DNA from: a virus
Taxonomy: Duplodnaviria > Heunggongvirae > Uroviricota > Caudoviricetes
Length of the DNA stretch: 51,350 nt
IMG/VR virus record: IMGVR_UViG_2690315831_000003
Reading direction: 5' to 3' (one strand)
Part shown: positions 1 through 22,742 of the stretch, piece after piece
Position numbering within the stretch: the stretch's first letter is position 1
How the letters are laid out: the number at the start of each line of letters is the position of its first letter
Notes under the pieces: model-generated
Seen by the model: only the letters and a program-made list of their open reading frames with translations
What the model was told of the DNA's origin: nothing
The model's database searches: none
Made by a program: the position numbers and the translations under genes

Positions 1-1131
1 TCAAATGACCAGTTTTTTCCACTCTTTACCGCGTACATCGTTGTAAATATCGGTCATTTTTTGATTCGAATGACCCAGCAAAATTTGGGTATCAATTCCC
101 TGCTCCCTGAACAATCGCTCTGATAAAGATCTCTGCTCATGGAAAGAGGGTGGAGTGCCATTAGCGCGCCAGTTGTAATCCACAGAATCCCGGGCTTTTT
201 TAAATGCAACTGTCAACGTTGCTGGCTTAACCATCCCGCCGCGCTTAGCTGTCCCTTTAGCATGATGGTGGTGCAATAACCACGGACTAAGAACGCAATC
301 GCGACAGGATGACACTACATCATCCAGGGTGAGATTTAATTTATCGCAACGCAGAGCCAGAGGGATGGCAATCCGGGTTCCTGTTTTTTGCTGTTCGACA
401 TGAAGATAACCATCCCTGATATCCGAAAATTTCATTTTGCAAATATCTGAAAGGCGCTGGCCTGTCATCAGCGCCAGCAGCATACCACGTTGTAAAAAGT
501 AACCATCCTTTTCCGCTGCATTATAAATCATCATCCACTCATCAAAGGTCAGTCGTTGCCGTGATATCCGTACCTGTGGTTTTTTTGCCGATTCTGCAGG
601 GTTAAAGCCTGGCGAGACATCGCCCGTTTGCTGGGCCTCCCGGAAAACATCAATCAGTACTTTCCTGAAAATTTGTCCCATTCTGTTATGTCCTTTTGCC
701 TTGTAATCTTCCAGCACCGATACCACATCTTTTACGGTTATGGCATCTAATGGTCTGGTACCAAAACGTTCATCAAATACCCTGAGAGGGGATGCTTTCT
801 GTTTCAGTGTGTTGAGTTTGATCTCTCCGTTTTCATATCTTTCCTGTTGAATTTTTCGGTAACTATTCAGAAAAACAGAAACGGTTGATGAACCACCGGT
901 ATCACGAATAATTTTCTCCTGCAGAGTGAGCATTTGTTCCATTTGTTGCCTGGCAAGACGGCTGTTCGCTTCTGCTGCAATAGCTTCTGCCTGTTTCTGG
1001 TCAATACTGCCGAGCCCGTGATTTTTTCCTGTTATGGGATGCCTGTAACGCCAGTAAACTTTGTTATTTCTTTTGTCAAAATACGGAGATAATCCCGGAA
1101 CTTCAGTTTTATATTTTCGTGGGCGCGCCAT
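1..1131 (-). CDS. int: Tyrosine-type site-specific integrase
   Basis: 376-aa ORF ending exactly at window start; position next to an excisionase-like gene; typical phage integrase length and basic N-terminal arm. Confidence 0.85.
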   Translation of the reverse strand: MARPRKYKTEVPGLSPYFDKRNNKVYWRYRHPITGKNHGLGSIDQKQAEAIAAEANSRLARQQMEQMLTLQEKIIRDTGGSSTVSVFLNSYRKIQQERYENGEIKLNTLKQKASPLRVFDERFGTRPLDAITVKDVVSVLEDYKAKGHNRMGQIFRKVLIDVFREAQQTGDVSPGFNPAESAKKPQVRISRQRLTFDEWMMIYNAAEKDGYFLQRGMLLALMTGQRLSDICKMKFSDIRDGYLHVEQQKTGTRIAIPLALRCDKLNLTLDDVVSSCRDCVLSPWLLHHHHAKGTAKRGGMVKPATLTVAFKKARDSVDYNWRANGTPPSFHEQRSLSERLFREQGIDTQILLGHSNQKMTDIYNDVRGKEWKKLVI

Positions 1132-1357
1132 CTTCCAGTATCCTCTTCAAAGCAGGGTGATCTGTGGCGATCACTTCCGGCTTGTTTACCATTCCGACAA
1201 AGCGAGCTCGAGGATCCACTCGCCAGTGTCTTCCAACTTTTTTGGGGAGAGGAAATATCATTCCGGCTTTAGCGTATTTACTTAACGTGCCCGGAGTCGG
1301 GACCGGTTCACTGAATTCCTCTTTTGCCCACTCAGTGAGCAGAATAAGTCTTGCCAT
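1109..1357 (-). CDS. xis: Excisionase-like small DNA-binding protein
   Basis: 82-aa basic ORF overlapping the int start by 23 bp, as in lambda xis/int. Confidence 0.6.
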   Translation of the reverse strand: MARLILLTEWAKEEFSEPVPTPGTLSKYAKAGMIFPLPKKVGRHWRVDPRARFVGMVNKPEVIATDHPALKRILEDGAPTKI

Positions 1358-1421
1358 GAGCGTTGTTCGCTAATCATGGCCGCCGCCACTATAGCTTGCG
1401 GACGACGACCGGGGTTGAACA

Positions 1422-3893
1422 TTAAAAATCAGCCTGACTCGGGATCAGTTTTTGCCAGATGGCTGAAACGTATTTTGCCTGGTAACGCGCATCGTGCAGC
1501 GCGTTATGGCGTTCACCTTCGAATGGAATAGTCGTTCTTGCGTCGAAATCCATCACCAGTCCCAGAGCAACCATCGTTCTTACATCGCGATCATTGGTGT
1601 AACGCCACGGGCAGGGGATCCCCTGCCGTTCATATGAACGGCGTAAAATCACGTTGTCGAAAGTTGCACCGTTACCCCAGACCTGAACAAAAAATTCACC
1701 GGAGTTTTCGTCGATAAATTCCCGGAATTGCAGCAGTGCATCATCCAACGGGATTTCATCGGTCAGAATGGCGGATTGTGCTTCGCGTGACTGTTTCAGC
1801 CACCACTTAATGGTGTCCCGATCGATGACCCCGCCTGCGGTTTCCAGATCGATAGTTTTGCTGAATTCTGGCCCCATCTCTCCGGTTGCCGGATCAAAAA
1901 ACTTACCGGCTATAGCGTTTATTGGCGCATCAGGATTTTTTCCCATTGTTTCAAGGTCAATCATCAGATGGTGCCACAACCTGCTGGTGGATGTGATTTC
2001 ATGATGACCGTTCACTTTAATTAAGGGATTTGCTGTTTCGCCAGTTTTATTATCGCTGGCGTGATACCGATCGCTGACAGTGTTCTCCTTGTGCAGATGT
2101 TCAGTGCCTTCCATTTCCTCCGGATCATTTTCCTGAGCTTCAGCCTGATTCTCTTCATCGAATGTTTCCTGGTAGGTTGCGTTCCCCATCACCGCACCAC
2201 AGTCAGGACAGTTGCCGCCACCGGTCTGACCGCATGCGGTGCAAACTTTTTCCGGTTCTTGTTGCACTTCTGGTTCAGGCAGTTTCGTTTCTGGCTCGTT
2301 TTGTAACGCATTTGGGCTGTTTTGTTCCGCTTTCTGGTCGTTTTGTTCCGATTCGGGCTGGTTCTGGTTCACAGAATCGCGGGTTTCAATCCCCTTAACC
2401 CATTTCGGATCATTCGGGTCGCTAATCCCTTCAACAAACTCACCACGTGATGCACCAAGCAATTTATCGGCGTCAGGCTGGCTGATATTGGCTGCCTGCA
2501 TAATTTTGTTTACTTCGTCAGCGGTAACTTTTACCGGCTCTGGTTGTTCTGAATGTTCAGATATATCTGTATTTTGCGGTAAGCCCATGTATGTGCCGTT
2601 TTTGCGGGCAAAATATTCTTCTTTCGTGATTTCAGTAGCCCCGGCAGCCAGCGCCTTGTCCAGACCAGAAAGTTTGTTTGCGCGACCGTATTTTTCCCCG
2701 TCCTTATCGGTAAAGACGAAATAAAAAGGCCCTTCACGCTCTACAGATGGTTCAGCTTCCACCAGGATTTCATTTTTTTGAGAATTGGATTCCGCCGTCT
2801 CCACTGGATCAGTTTGTTCTGCTGACAGGAGGAGAGCATCAGCAGGGCTCTGGTCTGTTTCTTCATGTTCAAATACGCCCTTTGTAGTCAGGTATTCAGT
2901 GATGTATTTGTTCAGCGCCACGGGATCTTTATGAATGTCGATCGGACGTTCACGAACAAGGCCGAAAATAGTCTGACGGCTGTATAGAAGTGCATCAGGT
3001 TGTTTGCGCATTGATGCAGAGATACGCTTCCAGTCTTCGCGATCCTTGTCGATAACTTCATTTTTTGCCCAGCGATGGATGCTGCCGTCAATGTTTCCGG
3101 CATCAATATCACCAGGCCAGAGAGCGTAAGCCAGCTCTTCATCCAGTGTTTTCCATGTCTGCCTGTATTCGCGACGAATGGCTGTAGTGACAGGGTTGAT
3201 TTTTGCTGCTGAGTTTTCGGTGAGGTGCTGGTTAACTCTGGTGCGTGCGAGATCAACAACAGACGTATATTTTCCGGTTTCCTTGCGTTTACCTTCGCGA
3301 CGTTTTTTCCAGATGCGCATCTCTGCCTGAATTTCTGGCCATTTGGCACCAGGCTTACATTTATGCTTAACCCACCCGATGGCATGCAGTTTAATCTCCG
3401 GATACATGGCGTTAACTTCTGGCATTTTCATCAACGCTTCAACGATATGTCCGTCGAATGTTGCCATGTCTTCCTGCAACAATTCCTGTGCGCTAATCAC
3501 CATATCAACGGTGATGTTTTCACATGTGTCGAACTTAACCATGACAGCGTTCTGTACTTCAGGGGACAGCTTGTCAAAAGTGACGTTCATCGGATCTGAT
3601 TCAGTCTCAACCGGGACAAAGGAAGCAGACGCCTCATCCCAGCGGTTTTCCAGCATATATTCAGCATCCCAGGAGTCGAGGGCTGGGCGGGGTGTACCGG
3701 GTTTATCCTCACAGACAAGAAATTTATAAGCGCAGTCCTGAGCAGCCGGATAATGTTCAAGGAATTGCCAGTGAAATTTTGCGCGGGCGCGACGTTCATC
3801 ACCGGCTTCAATGGCAGTGGCCACAGCAACAGCGCCCTCGTTTTTTATTGCCTGTTCGTCAGGAATGGCGGCGCAAATAAATATTTTACTCAT
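1422..3893 (-). CDS. Large exonuclease (the type often annotated exodeoxyribonuclease VIII-like) with C-terminal DnaQ/DEDDh 3'-5' exonuclease domain
   Basis: 823 aa; C-terminal motifs IDLETMG and HNALHDARYQAK fit DEDDh Exo I and Exo III; Cys-rich CTACGQTGGGNCPDCGA segment mid-protein; RBS GAGG before ATG at 3893. Confidence 0.7.
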   Translation of the reverse strand: MSKIFICAAIPDEQAIKNEGAVAVATAIEAGDERRARAKFHWQFLEHYPAAQDCAYKFLVCEDKPGTPRPALDSWDAEYMLENRWDEASASFVPVETESDPMNVTFDKLSPEVQNAVMVKFDTCENITVDMVISAQELLQEDMATFDGHIVEALMKMPEVNAMYPEIKLHAIGWVKHKCKPGAKWPEIQAEMRIWKKRREGKRKETGKYTSVVDLARTRVNQHLTENSAAKINPVTTAIRREYRQTWKTLDEELAYALWPGDIDAGNIDGSIHRWAKNEVIDKDREDWKRISASMRKQPDALLYSRQTIFGLVRERPIDIHKDPVALNKYITEYLTTKGVFEHEETDQSPADALLLSAEQTDPVETAESNSQKNEILVEAEPSVEREGPFYFVFTDKDGEKYGRANKLSGLDKALAAGATEITKEEYFARKNGTYMGLPQNTDISEHSEQPEPVKVTADEVNKIMQAANISQPDADKLLGASRGEFVEGISDPNDPKWVKGIETRDSVNQNQPESEQNDQKAEQNSPNALQNEPETKLPEPEVQQEPEKVCTACGQTGGGNCPDCGAVMGNATYQETFDEENQAEAQENDPEEMEGTEHLHKENTVSDRYHASDNKTGETANPLIKVNGHHEITSTSRLWHHLMIDLETMGKNPDAPINAIAGKFFDPATGEMGPEFSKTIDLETAGGVIDRDTIKWWLKQSREAQSAILTDEIPLDDALLQFREFIDENSGEFFVQVWGNGATFDNVILRRSYERQGIPCPWRYTNDRDVRTMVALGLVMDFDARTTIPFEGERHNALHDARYQAKYVSAIWQKLIPSQADF

Positions 3894-11393: not shown

Positions 11394-11603
11394 AAACGGT
11401 TTGCGGGGAAAGAAGAGTTAAGTAGAATTGCTGCGGGTGCTTGAGGCTGTCTGCCTCGGGCATGCCGCCGTAAGGCAGACAGAGAAAAGCCCCAGTTAAC
11501 ATTACGCGTCTTGCAGGACGCTTAACATTAATCTGAGGCCCAATCTATGCTTCACAAACGTAGGTTAGCCTCTTACGTGCCGAAAGGCAAGGAGAAGCAG
11601 GCT

Positions 11604-11759
11604 ATGAAGCAGCAAAAGGCGATGTTAATCGCCCTGATCGTCATCTGTATTACCGTTGTTGTGACGGCACTGGTAACGAGGAAAGACCTCTGCGAGGTAC
11701 GAATCCGAACCGGCCAGACGGAGGTCGCTGTCTTCGTAGACTACGAATCTGAGAAGTAA
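11604..11759 (+). CDS. hokD: Hok/Gef-family type I toxin (HokD/RelF-like)
   Basis: 51-aa MKQQKAMLIALIVICITVVVTALVTRKDLCEVRIRTGQTEVAVFVDYESEK nearly matches recalled HokD/RelF; structured 5' leader with 10-bp hairpin and 3' fold-back hairpin GCGAGGGAgaaaTCCCTCGC. Confidence 0.85.
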   Translation: MKQQKAMLIALIVICITVVVTALVTRKDLCEVRIRTGQTEVAVFVDYESEK

Positions 11760-15772: not shown

Positions 15773-16831
15773 ATGTTTAATACTGTAAAAATATCCAGTT
15801 GTGAGTTAATCAACGCTGACTGCCTGGAATTTATCCGGTCGTTACCCGAAAATTCTGTTGACCTGATAGTCACGGACCCGCCGTACTTTAAAGTGAAGCC
15901 TGAGGGCTGGGATAACCAGTGGAAGGGCGACGATGACTACCTGAAGTGGCTGGACCTGTGTCTGGCGCAGTTCTGGCGGGTGCTGAAACCTGCCGGAAGT
16001 CTTTACCTGTTCTGTGGCCATCGCCTGGCATCTGACATTGAAATCATGATGCGTGAACGCTTCAGTGTGCTGAACCATATTATCTGGGCAAAGCCGTCCG
16101 GACGCTGGAACGGGTGCAACAAGGAAAGCCTGCGGGCGTATTTCCCCGCCACAGAGCGCATTCTGTTCGCGGAACATTATCAGGGGCCGTATCGCCCGAA
16201 AGATGCCGGGTATGAGGCGAAGGGCAGGGCACTGAAACAGCATGTGATGGCCCCGCTGATTTCTTACTTTCGTGATGCGCGTGCTGCCCTGGGGATAACG
16301 GCAAAACAGATAGTGGATGCCACAGGAAAGAAAAACATGGTGTCGCACTGGTTCAGTGCCAGTCAGTGGCAGCTACCGAACGAAAGCGATTATCTGAAAT
16401 TACAGGCGCTGTTTGCCCGGGTGGCAGAAGAGAAGCATCAGCGGGGGGAACTGGAGAAGCCCCACCACCAGCTGCTGGAGACGTATACTTCACTGAACCG
16501 GCAGTATGCGGAACTGCAGAGTGAATATAAGCATCTGCGGCGGTATTTTGGCGTGACGGCGCAGGTGCCGTACACGGATGTGTGGACGCATAAACCGGTG
16601 CAGTACTATCCCGGGAAACATCCGTGCGAAAAACCGGCAGAAATGCTGCAGCAGATAATCAGCGCGAGCAGTCGTCCGGGTGACCTGGTTGCAGATTTTT
16701 TCATGGGGTCGGGTTCGACAGTCAAAGCCGCGATGGCGCTGGGGCGGCGTGCTACAGGCGTTGAGCTGGAGACTGAACGTTTTGAGCAGACGGTCAGGGA
16801 AGTTCAGGATTTAGTCAGTCAGAACGGATGA
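15773..16831 (+). CDS. Orphan DNA methyltransferase (N6-adenine or N4-cytosine, beta-class)
   Basis: DPPY motif near N-terminus (VTDPPYF) and FxGxG motif near C-terminus (FFMGSGST); no adjacent restriction endonuclease gene. Confidence 0.85.
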   Translation: MFNTVKISSCELINADCLEFIRSLPENSVDLIVTDPPYFKVKPEGWDNQWKGDDDYLKWLDLCLAQFWRVLKPAGSLYLFCGHRLASDIEIMMRERFSVLNHIIWAKPSGRWNGCNKESLRAYFPATERILFAEHYQGPYRPKDAGYEAKGRALKQHVMAPLISYFRDARAALGITAKQIVDATGKKNMVSHWFSASQWQLPNESDYLKLQALFARVAEEKHQRGELEKPHHQLLETYTSLNRQYAELQSEYKHLRRYFGVTAQVPYTDVWTHKPVQYYPGKHPCEKPAEMLQQIISASSRPGDLVADFFMGSGSTVKAAMALGRRATGVELETERFEQTVREVQDLVSQNG

Positions 16832-16871: not shown

Positions 16872-16947
16872 GGCCCTTTAGCTCAGTGGTGAGAGCGAGC
16901 GACTCATAATCGCCAGGTCGCTGGTTCAAATCCAGCAAGGGCCACCA
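16872..16947 (+). tRNA. tRNA with CAU anticodon (Ile2/ileX-like or Met)
   Basis: Cloverleaf folded by hand: acceptor GGCCCTT/AAGGGCC, D-arm GCTC-AGTGGTGA-GAGC, anticodon loop CTCATAA, T-loop TTCAAAT, 3' CCA. Confidence 0.85.
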
Positions 16948-16956
16948 TATCACATA

Positions 16957-17033
16957 CCGCCATTAGCTCATCGGGATAGAGCGCCAGCCTTCGAAGCTGG
17001 CTGCGCGGGGTTCGAGTCCTCGATGGCGGTCCA
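16957..17033 (+). tRNA. tRNA-Arg (UCG anticodon)
   Basis: Acceptor CCGCCAT/ATGGCGG, anticodon stem CCAGC/GCTGG with loop CTTCGAA, T-loop TTCGAGT, 3' CCA; unusual C1-G72. Confidence 0.75.
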
Positions 17034-17311: not shown

Positions 17312-17740
17312 ATGTATTGCCGTGCTGTACCGGTTCTTGTTTTGATATTAGCCAGTCTGACAACTGGCTGCACAAAAGATGTATCGACAAATAATTATGA
17401 TGCTTCTCTGTATCACTCAGATAAATTAATAAAGTCGCAAAATTTGAGCTCATCGGAACGTACCCCTGATGCCAGTGAAGAAATCCGGCAGTATGCCATT
17501 CAGGTCAGGAAAGCCATAGAAGAACAGTTAAAGGATGCGAGTAAGTATTCAGGAAAAGAGTGTTCACTGAGAATGTATATGGCCCCGAATGGTCTTCTGC
17601 TACAGGTTAAAAGAGAAAGCGGTGATCCCGATTTATGTCGTGAAGCGATGAATGCAGTAAAGAATGCTGATATACCATCACCACCGTCTTCAGGAGTATA
17701 TAAAGCATTTAGAAATGGCGTGCTGGATTTTAAACTCTGA
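17312..17740 (+). CDS. Lipoprotein with TolA C-terminal (domain III)-like domain
   Basis: Signal peptide plus lipobox LTTGC; C-terminal SKYSGKECSLRMYMAPNGLLLQVKRESGDPDLCREAMNAVKNADIPSPPSSGVYKAFRNGVLDFKL parallels recalled E. coli TolA III; AT-rich context. Confidence 0.7.
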   Translation: MYCRAVPVLVLILASLTTGCTKDVSTNNYDASLYHSDKLIKSQNLSSSERTPDASEEIRQYAIQVRKAIEEQLKDASKYSGKECSLRMYMAPNGLLLQVKRESGDPDLCREAMNAVKNADIPSPPSSGVYKAFRNGVLDFKL

Positions 17741-17877
17741 CAGGGGGAGAAGATTTTCTCCTGTCCTGATGATTTTGGGGCGCTGGAAAGATATTGTGCT
17801 GTGAAGTGTTAAATCCCTCACAATTCAGTAAGTTGACAGTTGCCTGTCAGACTGAGCATTTGTTAAAAAAATTTCGC

Positions 17878-18053
17878 ATGGTGAATCCCCCTGTGCGGAG
17901 GGGCGACTGGTGAACGGTATGATCTCTTTGATGATCGTAAGCGAGAATACGCGGGTTTGGTGTCACCGGGCTGAACTCACCGGGAGGCACCCGGCACCAT
18001 GCTCATGGTGATACAGAAATGCGGCTTCAGCCCCTCTCCGGAGGGGCTTTCTT
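17878..18053 (+). ncRNA. Putative sRNA, repeat unit A
   Basis: Promoter TTGCCT (17840-17845) / TAAAAA (17864-17869); terminator GCCCCTCTCCGGAGGGGC + T-run at 18030-18052; ORFs across the unit not conserved. Confidence 0.4.
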
Positions 18054-18060
18054 ATGGACA

Positions 18061-18128
18061 AAAAAAGCCCGCGCTGGGAGACGCGGGCGGCAAGGAATAA
18101 ACAATAAAACGTGAAGTAATACTTCAAC
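18061..18128 (-). ncRNA. Putative minus-strand sRNA, copy 1
   Basis: Minus strand: -35 TTGCGC, 17 nt, -10 TATTAT, then a ~70-nt transcript with hairpin GAAGTAtTACTTC and terminator GCCCGCG...CGCGGGC + T7. Confidence 0.4.
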
Positions 18129-18210
18129 TGGCGAATAATACCCTACAGTAATCACTCTGCGCAATAGCGTGGCCTTTTTCGAATTGCGGGCTGTAGTCTC
18201 CCTTCTGCCG

Positions 18211-18372
18211 GGTGTCCTGGTTGCAGATTTCTTCATGTGGTAGGGTTCGGCAGTTAAAGCAGCGATGGCGCTGGGGCGTCGTGCAACTGGCGTTGAGCTG
18301 GATACCGGGCGTTTTGAACAGACTGCGCAGGAAATCAGGGATGTATTTAGCGGGAGCGGTTTGCAGAAGTAA
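18211..18372 (+). pseudogene. Duplicated 3' fragment of the methyltransferase gene
   Basis: About 160 bp homologous to 16679-16831 (MTase C-terminus), with an in-frame stop and no start. Confidence 0.6.
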
Positions 18373-18435
18373 TCTCCCAAAATGCCATTTTTGGAATATA
18401 CTGGTATTAAGTCTTTTTGCTAAGGTTAATTCAAA

Positions 18436-19161
18436 ATGGATGTTGCCTGCTCTGTGGTCCTGATTCGCTATCCGATAGATATTTTTCTTGAAAAAGAAAA
18501 AGTTTCACTCGATGCCGGAAGTGTTATGCTTGTTGCCAGAAATATAAGAGGGCTTTTCTGTGCTTATGCCGACAGAGTGAAAATGGCAGATATAAGTAAC
18601 AGCGTCGTCAATCAGTATCTGGAAAGGGAGTGTGAACTGACGGAGTATACACCGACAAAAATGCCTCTTTATTTGATGTCTGATATTTACAATACGGAAC
18701 TGGCGGAGGCTTTAATAACCCGGCATAGTGAATCCAGTGATACTTTGAAGGATTTCTCTGTTATAACCGCATTTTCATGTATCTCCTTATTTGCAACAGA
18801 CAGACGTCTGCCATTATTTTTGTCCGGTGCTGTAAATAATATCAGCTGTAAAGTAAGGGCTATAATTCAGACCGACATATCGGCAGGCTGGATGCTTGGT
18901 GTGATTGCATTACAATTGCATATGAGCGAAAGCTTGTTGAAGCGAAAACTTAAGGATGAAGGTTATAGCTTTAGTCGGTTGTTGCTGGAGGAGCGAATGC
19001 GTGTTGCTGTTAATCTTGTATGTTTCCAGCGAGAGTGTGGACAAGCGATAGCGGAAAAATGTGGTTACTCAAGTAAGTCCTACTTCATTTCTGTATTTCA
19101 CCAGTATTATGGTGCACCACCTGAGAGCTATGCATATTTGCAGAAAGCAGACGTTATCTGA
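18436..19161 (+). CDS. AraC/XylS-family transcriptional regulator (cargo)
   Basis: 241 aa; C-terminal dual-HTH AraC signature region; AT-rich locus. Confidence 0.7.
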   Translation: MDVACSVVLIRYPIDIFLEKEKVSLDAGSVMLVARNIRGLFCAYADRVKMADISNSVVNQYLERECELTEYTPTKMPLYLMSDIYNTELAEALITRHSESSDTLKDFSVITAFSCISLFATDRRLPLFLSGAVNNISCKVRAIIQTDISAGWMLGVIALQLHMSESLLKRKLKDEGYSFSRLLLEERMRVAVNLVCFQRECGQAIAEKCGYSSKSYFISVFHQYYGAPPESYAYLQKADVI

Positions 19162-19529: not shown

Positions 19530-19852
19530 AACATATCCTGTATATTTATGTTGTTACATACAGGCGCTTTTAGTATCTGCCGCACGGCAGTTGTACTTCA
19601 GAATAAGATGCTTTTGTGACTGGTGGTGTTGTATCTGGGGTTAGCCAGTAGGCAGGTTCAGAGAGTCCGGTGGTAATTATGTGTATGCAGTGGTTGTTGC
19701 TGTACCGTGGGCAAGTTCTGGAACTGGCTTCGTCCATTGTAGATGATTGTTAGCTGGATATCAGTTACCTCATGGAAATGTTAAATGACTCACAATTCGG
19801 TTGATGGGCTATTGTCTGATCGATGGAAGTCTTGTAAAAACGAGCCAGCATA

Positions 19853-20012
19853 GTGAATCCCCCTGTGCGGAGGGGCGTCTGACATGGTCTCCATAGCGAT
19901 GGTCACAATACGCAGATTCAGTAGTCAGGCTGAATCTACCGGGAGGCACCCGGCACTATGCTGCTTATGGTGTATACATAGCGATCGGCCCCTCTCCGGA
20001 GGGGCTTTTTTT
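19853..20012 (+). ncRNA. Putative sRNA, repeat unit B
   Basis: Same conserved 5' and 3' blocks, divergent middle; terminator 19988-20012. Confidence 0.4.
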
Positions 20013-20111
20013 GTGCGGGAAAAGGCTGTGTTGTTAAGTGTTAAATTCCTCACAGTTCAGATGGTTGATGCTTGCCTGTCTGAGGGGGAGTTGTTAAAAA
20101 AGTTCTGCATG

Positions 20112-20282
20112 GTGAATCCCCCTGTGCGGAGGGGCGACTGGTGTGATTTGCATCTTTTCTGTTGTAGGCAATGCAAACGCGGGTTCAGGGACACCAGACT
20201 GGACTCACCGGGAGGCACCCGGCACCATGTTCATGATGATACAGATACGCAGTGTCAGCCCCTCTCCTGAGGGGCTTTTTTA
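20112..20282 (+). ncRNA. Putative sRNA, repeat unit C
   Basis: Near-identical to unit A over the first ~35 nt and the 3' hairpins; terminator 20258-20282. Confidence 0.4.
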
Positions 20283-20381
20283 TGCAGGAAAAACGCTGTG
20301 TTGTGAAATGTTAAATTCCTCACAGTTCAGATGGTTGATGCTTGCCTGTCTTACGGGGAGTTGTTAAAAAAGTTCTGCATG

Positions 20382-20544
20382 GTGAATCCCCCTGAGCGGA
20401 GGGGCATATCAGCGCAGGTGTTTCTACTCTATCCTTTCTGTGCGGGTTCAGGTGCTGATACTGAACTCACCGGGAGGCACCCGGCACCATGCAGTATACA
20501 GAGATTAGGCATACATCCAGGCTCCTCATCGCAGGAGCCTTTTT
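20382..20544 (+). ncRNA. Putative sRNA, repeat unit D
   Basis: Conserved 5' box and internal hairpin; different terminator GGCTCCTcatcgcAGGAGCC + T5. Confidence 0.35.
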
Positions 20545-20550
20545 ACATGT

Positions 20551-20628
20551 AAAAAAAAACCGCTCCTGGGAAGAGCGGTTGGCAAGGAAGCAAGGAATAA
20601 ATAACAAAACGTGAAGTAATTTATTCAG
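20551..20628 (-). ncRNA. Putative minus-strand sRNA, copy 2
   Basis: Same promoter TTGCGC-17-TATTAT and conserved body UUACUUCACGUUUU..UUAUUCCUUGC; terminator AACCGCTC...GAGCGGTT + T9. Confidence 0.4.
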
Positions 20629-20777
20629 CACCCTAATAATACCTTAGAGTAATCACCTTGCGCAACTGTAAGGGCGTATTTCTTTTTTGCGGGCTGTTTT
20701 TCTGTGTGACTTTTGTGTTTCCGGAGGTCAGCCCGTGCCTTCTCTGACTCAGAACATTATCCCGGCCGGGAGGATTC

Positions 20778-22742
20778 ATGGCATTTAAACACTACGATGT
20801 GGTCAGGGCGGCATCGCCGTCAGACCTTGCTGAACGACTGACACAAAAACTGAAGGAGGGCTGGCAGCCATTTGGCAGTCCGGTGGCCATCACGCCTTAT
20901 ACCCTGATGCAGGCCATTGCGGCGGAAGGTGATGTCACCACACCAGTGGCGGTGACCGGTAATGAGGGTAAGGCGGTGGCTGTCAGTGCCACCAGCGACC
21001 CGGAGTATTACTTTGTTGTGGTTCTGGCAGGGCAGTCAAATGGCATGTCGTATGGTGAAGGTCTTCCGCTGCCGGAGACATATGACCGTCCGGACCCGCG
21101 CATTAAGCAGCTGGCGCGCCGCAGTACGGTGACACCGGGCGGTGCAGCATGCAAATATAACGACATCATTCCGGCGGACCATTGTCTGCATGATGTGCAG
21201 GACATGAGCCGCCTTAACCATCCGAAAGCGGACCTGTCAAAGGGGCAGTACGGTACCGTGGGGCAGGGGCTGCATATCGCCAAAAAACTGCTGCCGTTTA
21301 TACCGGCGAATGCGGGTATTCTGCTGGTTCCGTGCTGTCGTGGTGGTTCAGCGTTCACCACCGGAGCTGATGGCACATACAGTGACGCTGGCGGTGCCTC
21401 GGAGAATTCAGCGCGCTGGGGTGTGGACAAGCCGCTGTATAAGGACCTTATCGGTCGAACAAAAGCAGCACTGAAGAAGAACCCGAAAAATGTGCTGTTT
21501 ACCGTGGTGTGGATGCAGGGGGAATTTGATTTTGACGGCACGCCCGGAAATCACGCAGCACAGTTTGGTGCGCTGGTTGATAAATTCCGTGCAGACCTGA
21601 CGGATATGGCAGGTCAGTGCGTTGGTGGCTCTGCTGGCGGTGTTCCCTGGATATGCGGGGACACGACGTATTTCTGGAAGCAGAAGAACGAATCCACGTA
21701 CCAGACGGTGTACGGCAGCTATAAAAACAAAACGGAAAAGAATATCCATTTCGTACCGTTCATGACGGATGAGAACGGGGTGAATGTGCCGACGAACAAA
21801 CCGGAAGAAGACCCGGACATTCCGGGTATCGGGTATTACGGTTCGAAATGGCGTGACAGCTCAGCCACCTGGACGTCACAGGACAGGGCGAGCCATTTCA
21901 GCACCTGGGCACGCCGGGGGATTATTTCCGACCGTCTGGCAACGGCGATTCTGGTGCACGCCGGGAGAACCGCTGAATTCATTACCGGAAAACAGCCTGA
22001 TATGGTGAAGCCCACCGTACCTTCCGGTGAAGGTCCGGAGAGAGAGGCGGAAGCCCCGGTCAGTAACCGAACCCTGATGAGTCTGCTGGCATCCGGCGAA
22101 GACCTGGCATCACAGGGCTGGCGCTATTATCACAAACCGGCGGGCGGAGACAGTGTTAACAAAAACATTGCTGAAGCGGTGGTCAGTGATGCGGGGGCTA
22201 CGGGAGGTAAGGCCCTGCAACTGAACAAACCGGAAAACCACATCTGGTTTCTGGAGCATGATGCAGCCGGACAGGGGGCGGAGTTACTGAAGAAGGGCGG
22301 ACGTGTGAGCGTACGGTTTAAGTTGCCGGGTTCACTGGTGCCGAATCAGTTTGCCCTGGGCATTTACTGGCAGTTGTCGTCCCTGCCGGAGGGGGTGACG
22401 CTGTCAGGAGAAGGTAACGATATGCTGATGTCTTTCTTCCTGCAGACGGATACGACGAACCTGAACGCGATGCATCACAGGAAGCCGAATGCGAAGCTGG
22501 ATACATTCGGGGTCTTTGATAACGGATGGCACACGCTGGCTTTTGAGTTTGCCGGAAACAACAGCATTCAGGTGACACCAGTACTGGATGAGAAACGGGG
22601 AGCGGCGTTCACACTGGTGAAGTCACCGGCATCGGGGGCGGCGGACAAACTGCAACTGACCGATATATCAAAATCGGCGACGTATACGCTGCTGATTGAC
22701 AGCATTGCGGTGGAAGTGAACAGCACAGACACTGCGGCATGA
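20778..22742 (+). CDS. nanS: Prophage 9-O-acetyl-sialate esterase NanS-p-like (SGNH hydrolase)
   Basis: 654 aa; GQSN motif in VVLAGQSNGMSYGEG; same location relative to the stx site as the NanS-p gene of Stx phages. Confidence 0.7.
   Translation: MAFKHYDVVRAASPSDLAERLTQKLKEGWQPFGSPVAITPYTLMQAIAAEGDVTTPVAVTGNEGKAVAVSATSDPEYYFVVVLAGQSNGMSYGEGLPLPETYDRPDPRIKQLARRSTVTPGGAACKYNDIIPADHCLHDVQDMSRLNHPKADLSKGQYGTVGQGLHIAKKLLPFIPANAGILLVPCCRGGSAFTTGADGTYSDAGGASENSARWGVDKPLYKDLIGRTKAALKKNPKNVLFTVVWMQGEFDFDGTPGNHAAQFGALVDKFRADLTDMAGQCVGGSAGGVPWICGDTTYFWKQKNESTYQTVYGSYKNKTEKNIHFVPFMTDENGVNVPTNKPEEDPDIPGIGYYGSKWRDSSATWTSQDRASHFSTWARRGIISDRLATAILVHAGRTAEFITGKQPDMVKPTVPSGEGPEREAEAPVSNRTLMSLLASGEDLASQGWRYYHKPAGGDSVNKNIAEAVVSDAGATGGKALQLNKPENHIWFLEHDAAGQGAELLKKGGRVSVRFKLPGSLVPNQFALGIYWQLSSLPEGVTLSGEGNDMLMSFFLQTDTTNLNAMHHRKPNAKLDTFGVFDNGWHTLAFEFAGNNSIQVTPVLDEKRGAAFTLVKSPASGAADKLQLTDISKSATYTLLIDSIAVEVNSTDTAA

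Follow-up and report, generated by a model that had tools for sequence, protein, structure and literature searches.

A new allele of the EcOnc08/21/42 prophage sRNA family between an STnc100 gene and a NanS-p-type esterase gene

The locus and its minus-strand element

The window analysed here is a stretch of 51,350 nucleotides of DNA from a virus of the Caudoviricetes. At 20778..22742 on the plus strand it carries a gene for a 654-aa NanS-p-type sialate O-acetylesterase (DUF1737, SASA and DUF6645, from Pfam and RefSeq), in agreement with the NanS-like gene named in a preliminary description of the sequence. On the same strand, an sRNA gene of the STnc100 family was detected at 20349..20550 (Rfam RF02076, 165.6 bits), the fourth of its kind in the window after those at 17847-18059, 19819-20014 and 20078-20287. 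The element studied here, copy 2, lies on the minus strand at 20551-20670. A second, diverged copy (copy 1) was found on the minus strand at 18060..18164 by repeat comparison and by alignment to Sakai Sp4, confirming that the small minus-strand unit is duplicated. Identity between the two copies is 94% over a core of 31 nt and 74-79% in the segments of the promoter and the terminator. Each lies tail to tail with the 3' end of an STnc100 gene, copy 1 with the gene at 17847-18059 and copy 2 with the fourth, which is its convergent partner. Three of the four STnc100 genes are arranged head to tail with gaps of ~60 nt, and a convergent minus-strand partner is present only for the first and the last of the four.

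A locus of 99.6% identity is present in E. coli RM10466, where it is annotated in RefSeq as the late region of a lambdoid prophage with genes for a methyltransferase, tRNAs, a TolA-like protein, an HTH protein, the esterase, a holin and a lysozyme. The RM10466 annotation has no feature over the copy 2 element. The two tRNA genes of the window are on the plus strand at 16872-16947 (anticodon CAT) and 16957-17033 (TCG) and form a pair of the ileZ/argN type, typical of Stx-like prophages; argO (TCT), the third gene in Sakai Sp4/Sp5, is missing here. The 3'-terminal part of the DNA methyltransferase gene occurs twice, at 16676-16827 and 18208-18359, with 80% identity between the repeats, the second of which is a pseudogene fragment in the RM10466 RefSeq annotation. 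Two modules, each consisting of a moron (an accessory-gene insertion) and a convergent sRNA pair, appear to be stacked in this region, around a TolA-like ORF (17312-17740) and an AraC-type HTH ORF (18436-19161). Elsewhere in the window, the sok antitoxin RNA was matched at 11435-11609 (+) (Rfam RF01794, 117.7 bits), which suggests a hok/sok-type module.

Read along the minus strand, copy 2 has the hexamers TTGCGC at 20665-20660 and TATTAT at 20641-20636, which together form a proximal promoter-like element (20636..20665) recognised by the position of the pattern, by alignment to the AsxR promoter and by the invariance of the hexamers. The preliminary description had given a spacer of 17 nt; the hexamers stand, but the spacer measures 18 nt. 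It had also stated that the spacing is equal in both copies, which is correct, as the hexamers of copy 1 (18164-18060) are identical and likewise 18 nt apart. The pattern TTGCGC-N18-TATTAT has exactly two matches in the 51-kb window and none in 100 shuffles. A conserved G/U-rich RNA core, AUUACUUCACGUUUUGUUAUUUAUU, follows at 20597..20620 on the same strand (repeat family D10 and IMG/VR pattern search). The alignments place a seed region at 20581..20596 (minus strand), in which CCUUGCC (20587-20581) adjoins the terminator and is preceded by CCUUGCU. This doubled seed is an 8-nt tandem duplication (TTCCTTGC twice) that yields CCUUGCU and then CCUUGCC. The duplication is evident against the single-seed type-B allele of locus L050, and it is absent from the other alleles.

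The element ends in an intrinsic terminator at 20551..20580 on the minus strand (terminator scan and RNA fold), which comprises a 10-bp hairpin with stem AACCGCUCUU/AGGAGCGGUU, a CCC loop and a U tail. The hairpin, AACCGCTCTT-CCC-AGGAGCGGTT, occupies 20580-20558, about 55 nt beyond TATTAT on the minus strand, and T residues then continue to 20551. The nine consecutive T residues described earlier are present, two of them inside the stem, and the stems of the two copies are unlike in the repeat comparison, so that the terminator is indeed built from a different hairpin in each. The proposal that the hairpin is bidirectional did not hold. On the plus strand, A9 lies before the hairpin and GGCAAGGAAG, which has no T run, lies after it, and the scan reported a minus-strand terminator only. 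The hairpin is therefore a one-way terminator. That it might also end a plus-strand unit D is unsupported; the plus-strand STnc100 gene has its own hairpin and T5 at 20519-20545. The predicted ~79-nt RNA of copy 2 folds into a 5' hairpin, an open U-rich/seed stretch and the terminator, and its fold is much more stable than those of shuffled sequences (z = -4.8). The 3' module is organised as is usual for sRNAs that bind Hfq: a single-stranded G/U-rich stretch, then the seed CCUUGCC, then a hairpin and its U tail.

Relationship to EcOnc08/21/42 and to the EPEC homologue

Convergent sRNA pairs, bordered on one side by the moron genes that follow PR' and on the other by a conserved phage ORF, have been described by Tree et al. 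(2014, PMC4104026), who found them in Sakai Sp3, 4, 5, 9, 10, 11, 15 and 17. EcOnc08, EcOnc21 and EcOnc42 are Hfq-CRAC peaks with Northern signal in O157:H7 Sakai (PMC4104026). To calibrate the old published coordinates, the positions of the Northern probes were determined in the loci retrieved here. On the calibrated scale, the 3' module falls on the Hfq-CRAC peak EcOnc08 (1179938-1180010, minus), the segment just upstream of it on EcOnc21 (1180016-1180101) and the Sp15 copy on EcOnc42. Copy 1 shares 94.6% identity with Sakai Sp4 (NC_002695.2 1,179,935-1,180,045) and 93.7% with Sp15; for copy 2, the identity with O157 and other genomes is 83.5% over 79 nt comprising the body and promoter. The order of the locus is alike in Sakai Sp4, Sp15 and Sp5, with STnc100 on the plus strand, the sRNA on the minus strand and then nanS-p. 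Copy 2 occupies this same position, on the minus strand after Q/PR', tail to tail with STnc100 and with the esterase gene downstream.

The copies in the window thus resemble EcOnc08/21/42 in strand, in convergence with STnc100, in having nanS-p downstream, in the seed CCUUGCC and in the proximal hexamers. Compared with the family body AUUACUUCACGUUUURUURUUUAUUCCUUGCC, copy 2 has the core apart from a single purine change, and its seed CCUUGCC, present twice, lies beside an intrinsic terminator with a U tail as in the family. Copy 2 differs from EcOnc08/21/42 in this one change in the G/U core, in the seed-doubling 8-nt duplication, in a diverged segment between the two promoters discussed below and in its terminator stem, which is AACCGCUCUU/AGGAGCGGUU rather than GCCCGCGU/GCGCGGGC and pairs in another register. 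We conclude that copy 2 is a new allele of the known prophage sRNA family EcOnc08/21/42, which has been experimentally detected yet is uncharacterised; a 2021 review still gave the targets of EcOnc42/21/08 as unknown. STnc100 (RF02076), EcOnc27, EcOnc05 and PasD correspond to the convergent plus-strand neighbour, which belongs to the same two-gene module but is a different RNA.

An Rfam search, at gathering thresholds and then at E<=10, returned no family for the minus-strand element, and the sub-threshold matches to OmrA-B (E 0.7-2.1), GcvB (E 3.1) and RsaOG were rejected as terminator look-alikes. Identity with PasA, PasC or PasD, sRNAs of the Storz and Margalit laboratories from near the esterase gene, was likewise rejected: the PasA sequence is absent from the window, and the E2348/69 PasD2 and PasA regions gave no blastn match to it. 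The published RIL-seq table for EPEC contains a very abundant RNA at NC_011601 1060613-1060672 (-), labelled CDS E2348C_1013. It immediately follows PasD1 (1060384-1060434, +) and converges with it, the same pair layout in another prophage.

The EPEC member of the family is 'E2348C_1409.E2348C_1408.IGR', located on the minus strand at 1444797-1444978 in prophage PP6 of E2348/69 (Pearl Mizrahi et al. 2021, PMC8550237), with the authors' note 'Homologues identified in EHEC (EcOnc08/EcOnc21/EcOnc42)' (PMC8550237). Both this note and our alignment place it in the same family as copy 2. It differs from copy 2 in that an IS element replaces the STnc100 partner and in being a type-A allele with a single seed. 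In RIL-seq, the EPEC homologue was always the second RNA in chimeras and had many trans partners (PMC8550237), among them the 5'UTRs of cfa (767 chimeras) and dppA (197), as well as pcm (118), perA, tir and espC (PMC8550237). The motif common to its targets is GGCAAGG (PMC8550237), which is the complement of the seed CCUUGCC immediately 5' of the terminator.

Most relatives, copy 1 included, have the type-A terminator stem, from which type C departs by a double change of G-C to A-U and type D by a change of U.G to C-G. Copy 2 is of type B, in which the stem is wholly different and uses another pairing register, yet still pairs. Single stem mismatches occur occasionally among the variants, including the Sakai Sp15 copy. 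The compensated changes were read directly from the alignment, which is gap-free, with types A and B pairing in different registers; a single consensus structure would therefore misreport the hairpins. The EcOnc08-type family is present in ~990 of 5,426 complete E. coli genomes (about 18%). The copy-2 allele itself was found, at >=99% identity, in 77 of these 5,426 genomes, as prophages, and in a few IMG/VR contigs. Strains that carry it include RM10466, STEC1590 and 94-3024. Among IMG/VR phage contigs, at least 120 match the core pattern. The GenBank phage collection held no copy-2 allele at >=90% identity, the best match being 78-85%. A search for the core pattern in one genome per bacterial species gave 0 matches, which says nothing about how far the family extends outside E. 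coli prophages. The slot of the Stx1 phage AU5Stx1 (KU977419.1 23794-23902) holds the copy-2 promoter and the type-B terminator around a different RNA body, ACCAUCGUUAAUUAAUUGUUCAUAUUGUUUCUUCUUGCC, and the slot is therefore mosaic. This body looks like another undescribed allele. The AU5Stx1 slot lies between stx1B and the esterase gene.

Predicted proximal and distal starts of transcription

In Sakai Sp5, the same slot holds AsxR (RF02703), which is encoded on the minus strand between STnc100, which it directly follows, and the esterase gene ECs_1207. The proximal promoter-like element of copy 2 aligns hexamer for hexamer with the AsxR promoter (TTGCGC-18-TAAAAT), with an equal 18-nt spacer; in the alignment, 5 nt separate TAAAAT from the first nucleotide of AsxR. 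RLM-RACE mapped the 5' ends of EcOnc01-03, AsxR among them, as primary (PMC4104026). Among 59 unique variants, drawn from IMG/VR and the fetched genomes, the proximal hexamers are invariant in all but one sequence, and about 8 spacer positions and the flanks vary. The homology to AsxR and the invariant hexamers make the promoter proposed in the preliminary description plausible, but not as the sole start, as it lies inside the longer RNA of the relatives. From its homology to the mapped AsxR promoter, we infer that copy 2 may use the proximal promoter, with a predicted start at ~20629-20631 and an RNA of ~78-80 nt.

On paper this promoter is weak. It matches the sigma-70 consensus at 8 of 12 positions, with only 3 of 6 in the -35 hexamer, and has an 18-nt spacer. 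It fell below the threshold of a consensus promoter scan of the window and is not among the sites reported, because only these 8 positions match. Its conservation may be as RNA rather than as promoter. The weak, unlisted match could be taken to mean that no functional RNA is made, the hairpin being an insulator against stray leftward transcription and the hexamers chance or a relic, and the region is dense in terminators (30 found by the terminator scan versus 10.6 expected). We regard this as very improbable, as hundreds of prophages preserve the entire module, with an invariant core, invariant hexamers and compensated changes in the stem, and as the relatives are abundant Hfq-bound RNAs.

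Evidence from the relatives points to a start further upstream. The Northern probe for EcOnc08/21/42, AATAATATCCGACAGTAATCACTCTGCGCAATAGC, detects an RNA of ~271 nt (PMC4104026). In the fetched loci, this probe spans precisely the -35 to -10 region of the proposed promoter, and in calibrated coordinates the CRAC peaks EcOnc21 and EcOnc42 are situated upstream of the proximal start. In EPEC, the 5' end was estimated from RNA-seq to be 182 nt from the 3' end (PMC8550237). Because of the probe position, the CRAC peaks and the RNA-seq 5' end, transcription of the relatives also starts further upstream. The strand and the terminator given earlier for the 'mini' transcription unit are right, and the element is a small non-coding unit, but its mini size probably does not hold, the RNAs of the relatives being 182 to ~271 nt long.

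A promoter scan identified a distal promoter-like element, ATGCCA-17-GATAAT, on the minus strand at 20756..20784. It matches at 9 of 12 positions, has a predicted start at ~20749 and overlaps the esterase start codon on the opposite strand. This element is probably the upstream start in the relatives; in the alignment, the EPEC RNA-seq 5' end lies 11-12 nt downstream of the start predicted from the equivalent distal promoter. The real unit of copy 2 likely extends to about 20750. The minus-strand segment 20666..20749 is the probable 5' portion of a long isoform of ~198 nt and is antisense to the esterase 5' untranslated region; it was placed by alignment to Sakai Sp4/Sp15 and EPEC PP6, for which CRAC, probe and RNA-seq data are available. 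The sizes disagree, with ~271 nt by Northern and 182 nt by RNA-seq versus the ~198 nt predicted here. As an alternative source of the short RNA, the long form might be processed to a short 3' fragment. In copy 1, the nanS-p-proximal (distal) segment has been lost and a fragment of a methyltransferase gene lies in its place, and the 3' module and proximal promoter are kept. Because the distal segment and its promoter are missing, copy 1 is a natural case in which activity of the proximal promoter could be tested. Upstream of copy 1, at 18395-18423 (-), there is another weak promoter-like site, TTAGCA-17-TATATT (9/12), from which a longer transcript through copy 1 could arise.

The antisense position of the long isoform raises another reading, in which the main product is a cis-antisense RNA, namely the long isoform with its start at the nanS-p start codon or further on, that acts on the late transcript, either by pairing with the nanS-p 5' untranslated region or by interfering with converging late transcription, and trans contacts are secondary. 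The stretch antisense to the nanS-p leader is indeed covered by the Northern signal and CRAC peaks of the relatives, the distal promoter and the start codon of nanS-p overlap, and an RNA of ~271 nt would extend into the coding sequence. However, copy 1 keeps the 3' module and proximal promoter after losing the nanS-p-proximal segment, the 3' module is the best conserved part whereas the antisense segment is strongly diverged in copy 2, and the EPEC RNA behaves as a typical sRNA, second in chimeras and with many trans partners. We therefore consider a mainly cis-antisense role unlikely.

Partners of the RNA and the slot as a possible cassette site

Copy 2 resembles AsxR, AgvB and EcOnc03 (RF02703, RF02702) in its lambdoid prophage slot, its strand, its promoter (TTGCGC, 18-nt spacer) and its nanS-p-side flank. 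Two sRNAs of the same slot are sponges (Tree et al. 2014, PMC4104026). The locus, strand and promoter shared with AsxR would fit an anti-sRNA sponge that sequesters a core-genome sRNA and does not regulate mRNAs. In contrast, the body of copy 2 is not homologous to the ~42-nt 3' region of the anti-sRNAs, GUAUCUCAUGCWAUUGCCCGAACCCAYUCGGGC: it gave no match to RF02702 or RF02703 at E<=10, and the bodies cannot be aligned. The anti-sRNAs are 51-60 nt long from a mapped primary start, whereas the RNA of copy 2 is predicted to be longer, at ~78-80 nt from the proximal or ~200 nt from the distal promoter, as are the RNAs of the relatives. The partners of AsxR and AgvB are sRNAs, and those listed for the EPEC homologue in RIL-seq are mRNAs. 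A sponge function is thus improbable for copy 2.

Collectively, these results suggest that copy 2 is quite probably a prophage gene for an Hfq-dependent, trans-acting sRNA of the EcOnc08/21/42 family, probably with two nested promoters; the cis-antisense, sponge and insulator readings are all less likely. Expression, Hfq binding and RNA partners are documented only in relatives, and we infer them, and the regulatory outcome, for the RNA of copy 2. The gene belongs to the moron region downstream of PR', on the strand opposite to the late genes. In a lysogen, it would be transcribed leftward and transcription would end at its own intrinsic terminator (20580-20551). The distal promoter would give an RNA of ~200 nt, the form documented in relatives, and the proximal TTGCGC-18-TATTAT an RNA of ~80 nt ending at the same terminator. 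By analogy with EPEC, the seed CCUUGCC would pair with mRNAs that contain GGCAAGG, in the 5' untranslated regions of cfa and dppA and in pcm and tir, and the G/U-rich core would perhaps also pair with host and virulence mRNAs during lysogeny. In duplex predictions, the seed region paired with the expected CGGCAAGG site of the cfa leader, and the G/U core with AAACAACAAA of the dppA leader. With neither leader did the seed region reach a better energy than shuffled seeds, and the pairing step therefore rests on the published RIL-seq and not on computation.

The prophage sRNAs of this slot are neighbours of the Shiga toxin genes and redirect regulation in their EHEC and EPEC hosts; AsxR affects haem use and AgvB peptide uptake. 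The EcOnc08-type family, which in EPEC contacts the virulence mRNAs tir, perA and espC, is still unnamed and has no Rfam model. To this family the window adds a diverged allele, in which the seed is doubled and the terminator exchanged, and a case of two alleles stacked in one prophage. The copy-2 allele is useful for annotation and for the design of experiments, and it leaves current understanding unchanged.

A more speculative reading, which we hold to be rather unlikely, is that the slot between STnc100 and nanS-p is a cassette site whose alleles oppose each other on one host circuit, with the EcOnc08-type RNA acting as a GcvB mimic that represses dppA. One conserved promoter and terminator would then frame interchangeable RNA bodies, namely AsxR, AgvB, EcOnc03, the EcOnc08 type, the AU5Stx1 body and the doubled-seed allele of copy 2. 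The G/U-rich core is complementary over 10 bp to a C/A-rich element of the dppA leader. This element is a classical GcvB target, and AgvB, from the same slot, sponges GcvB. GcvB mimicry by the EcOnc08-type family is suggested because the core complements the GcvB site of dppA and because AgvB acts on GcvB. The seed duplication of copy 2 could change its target range or affinity.
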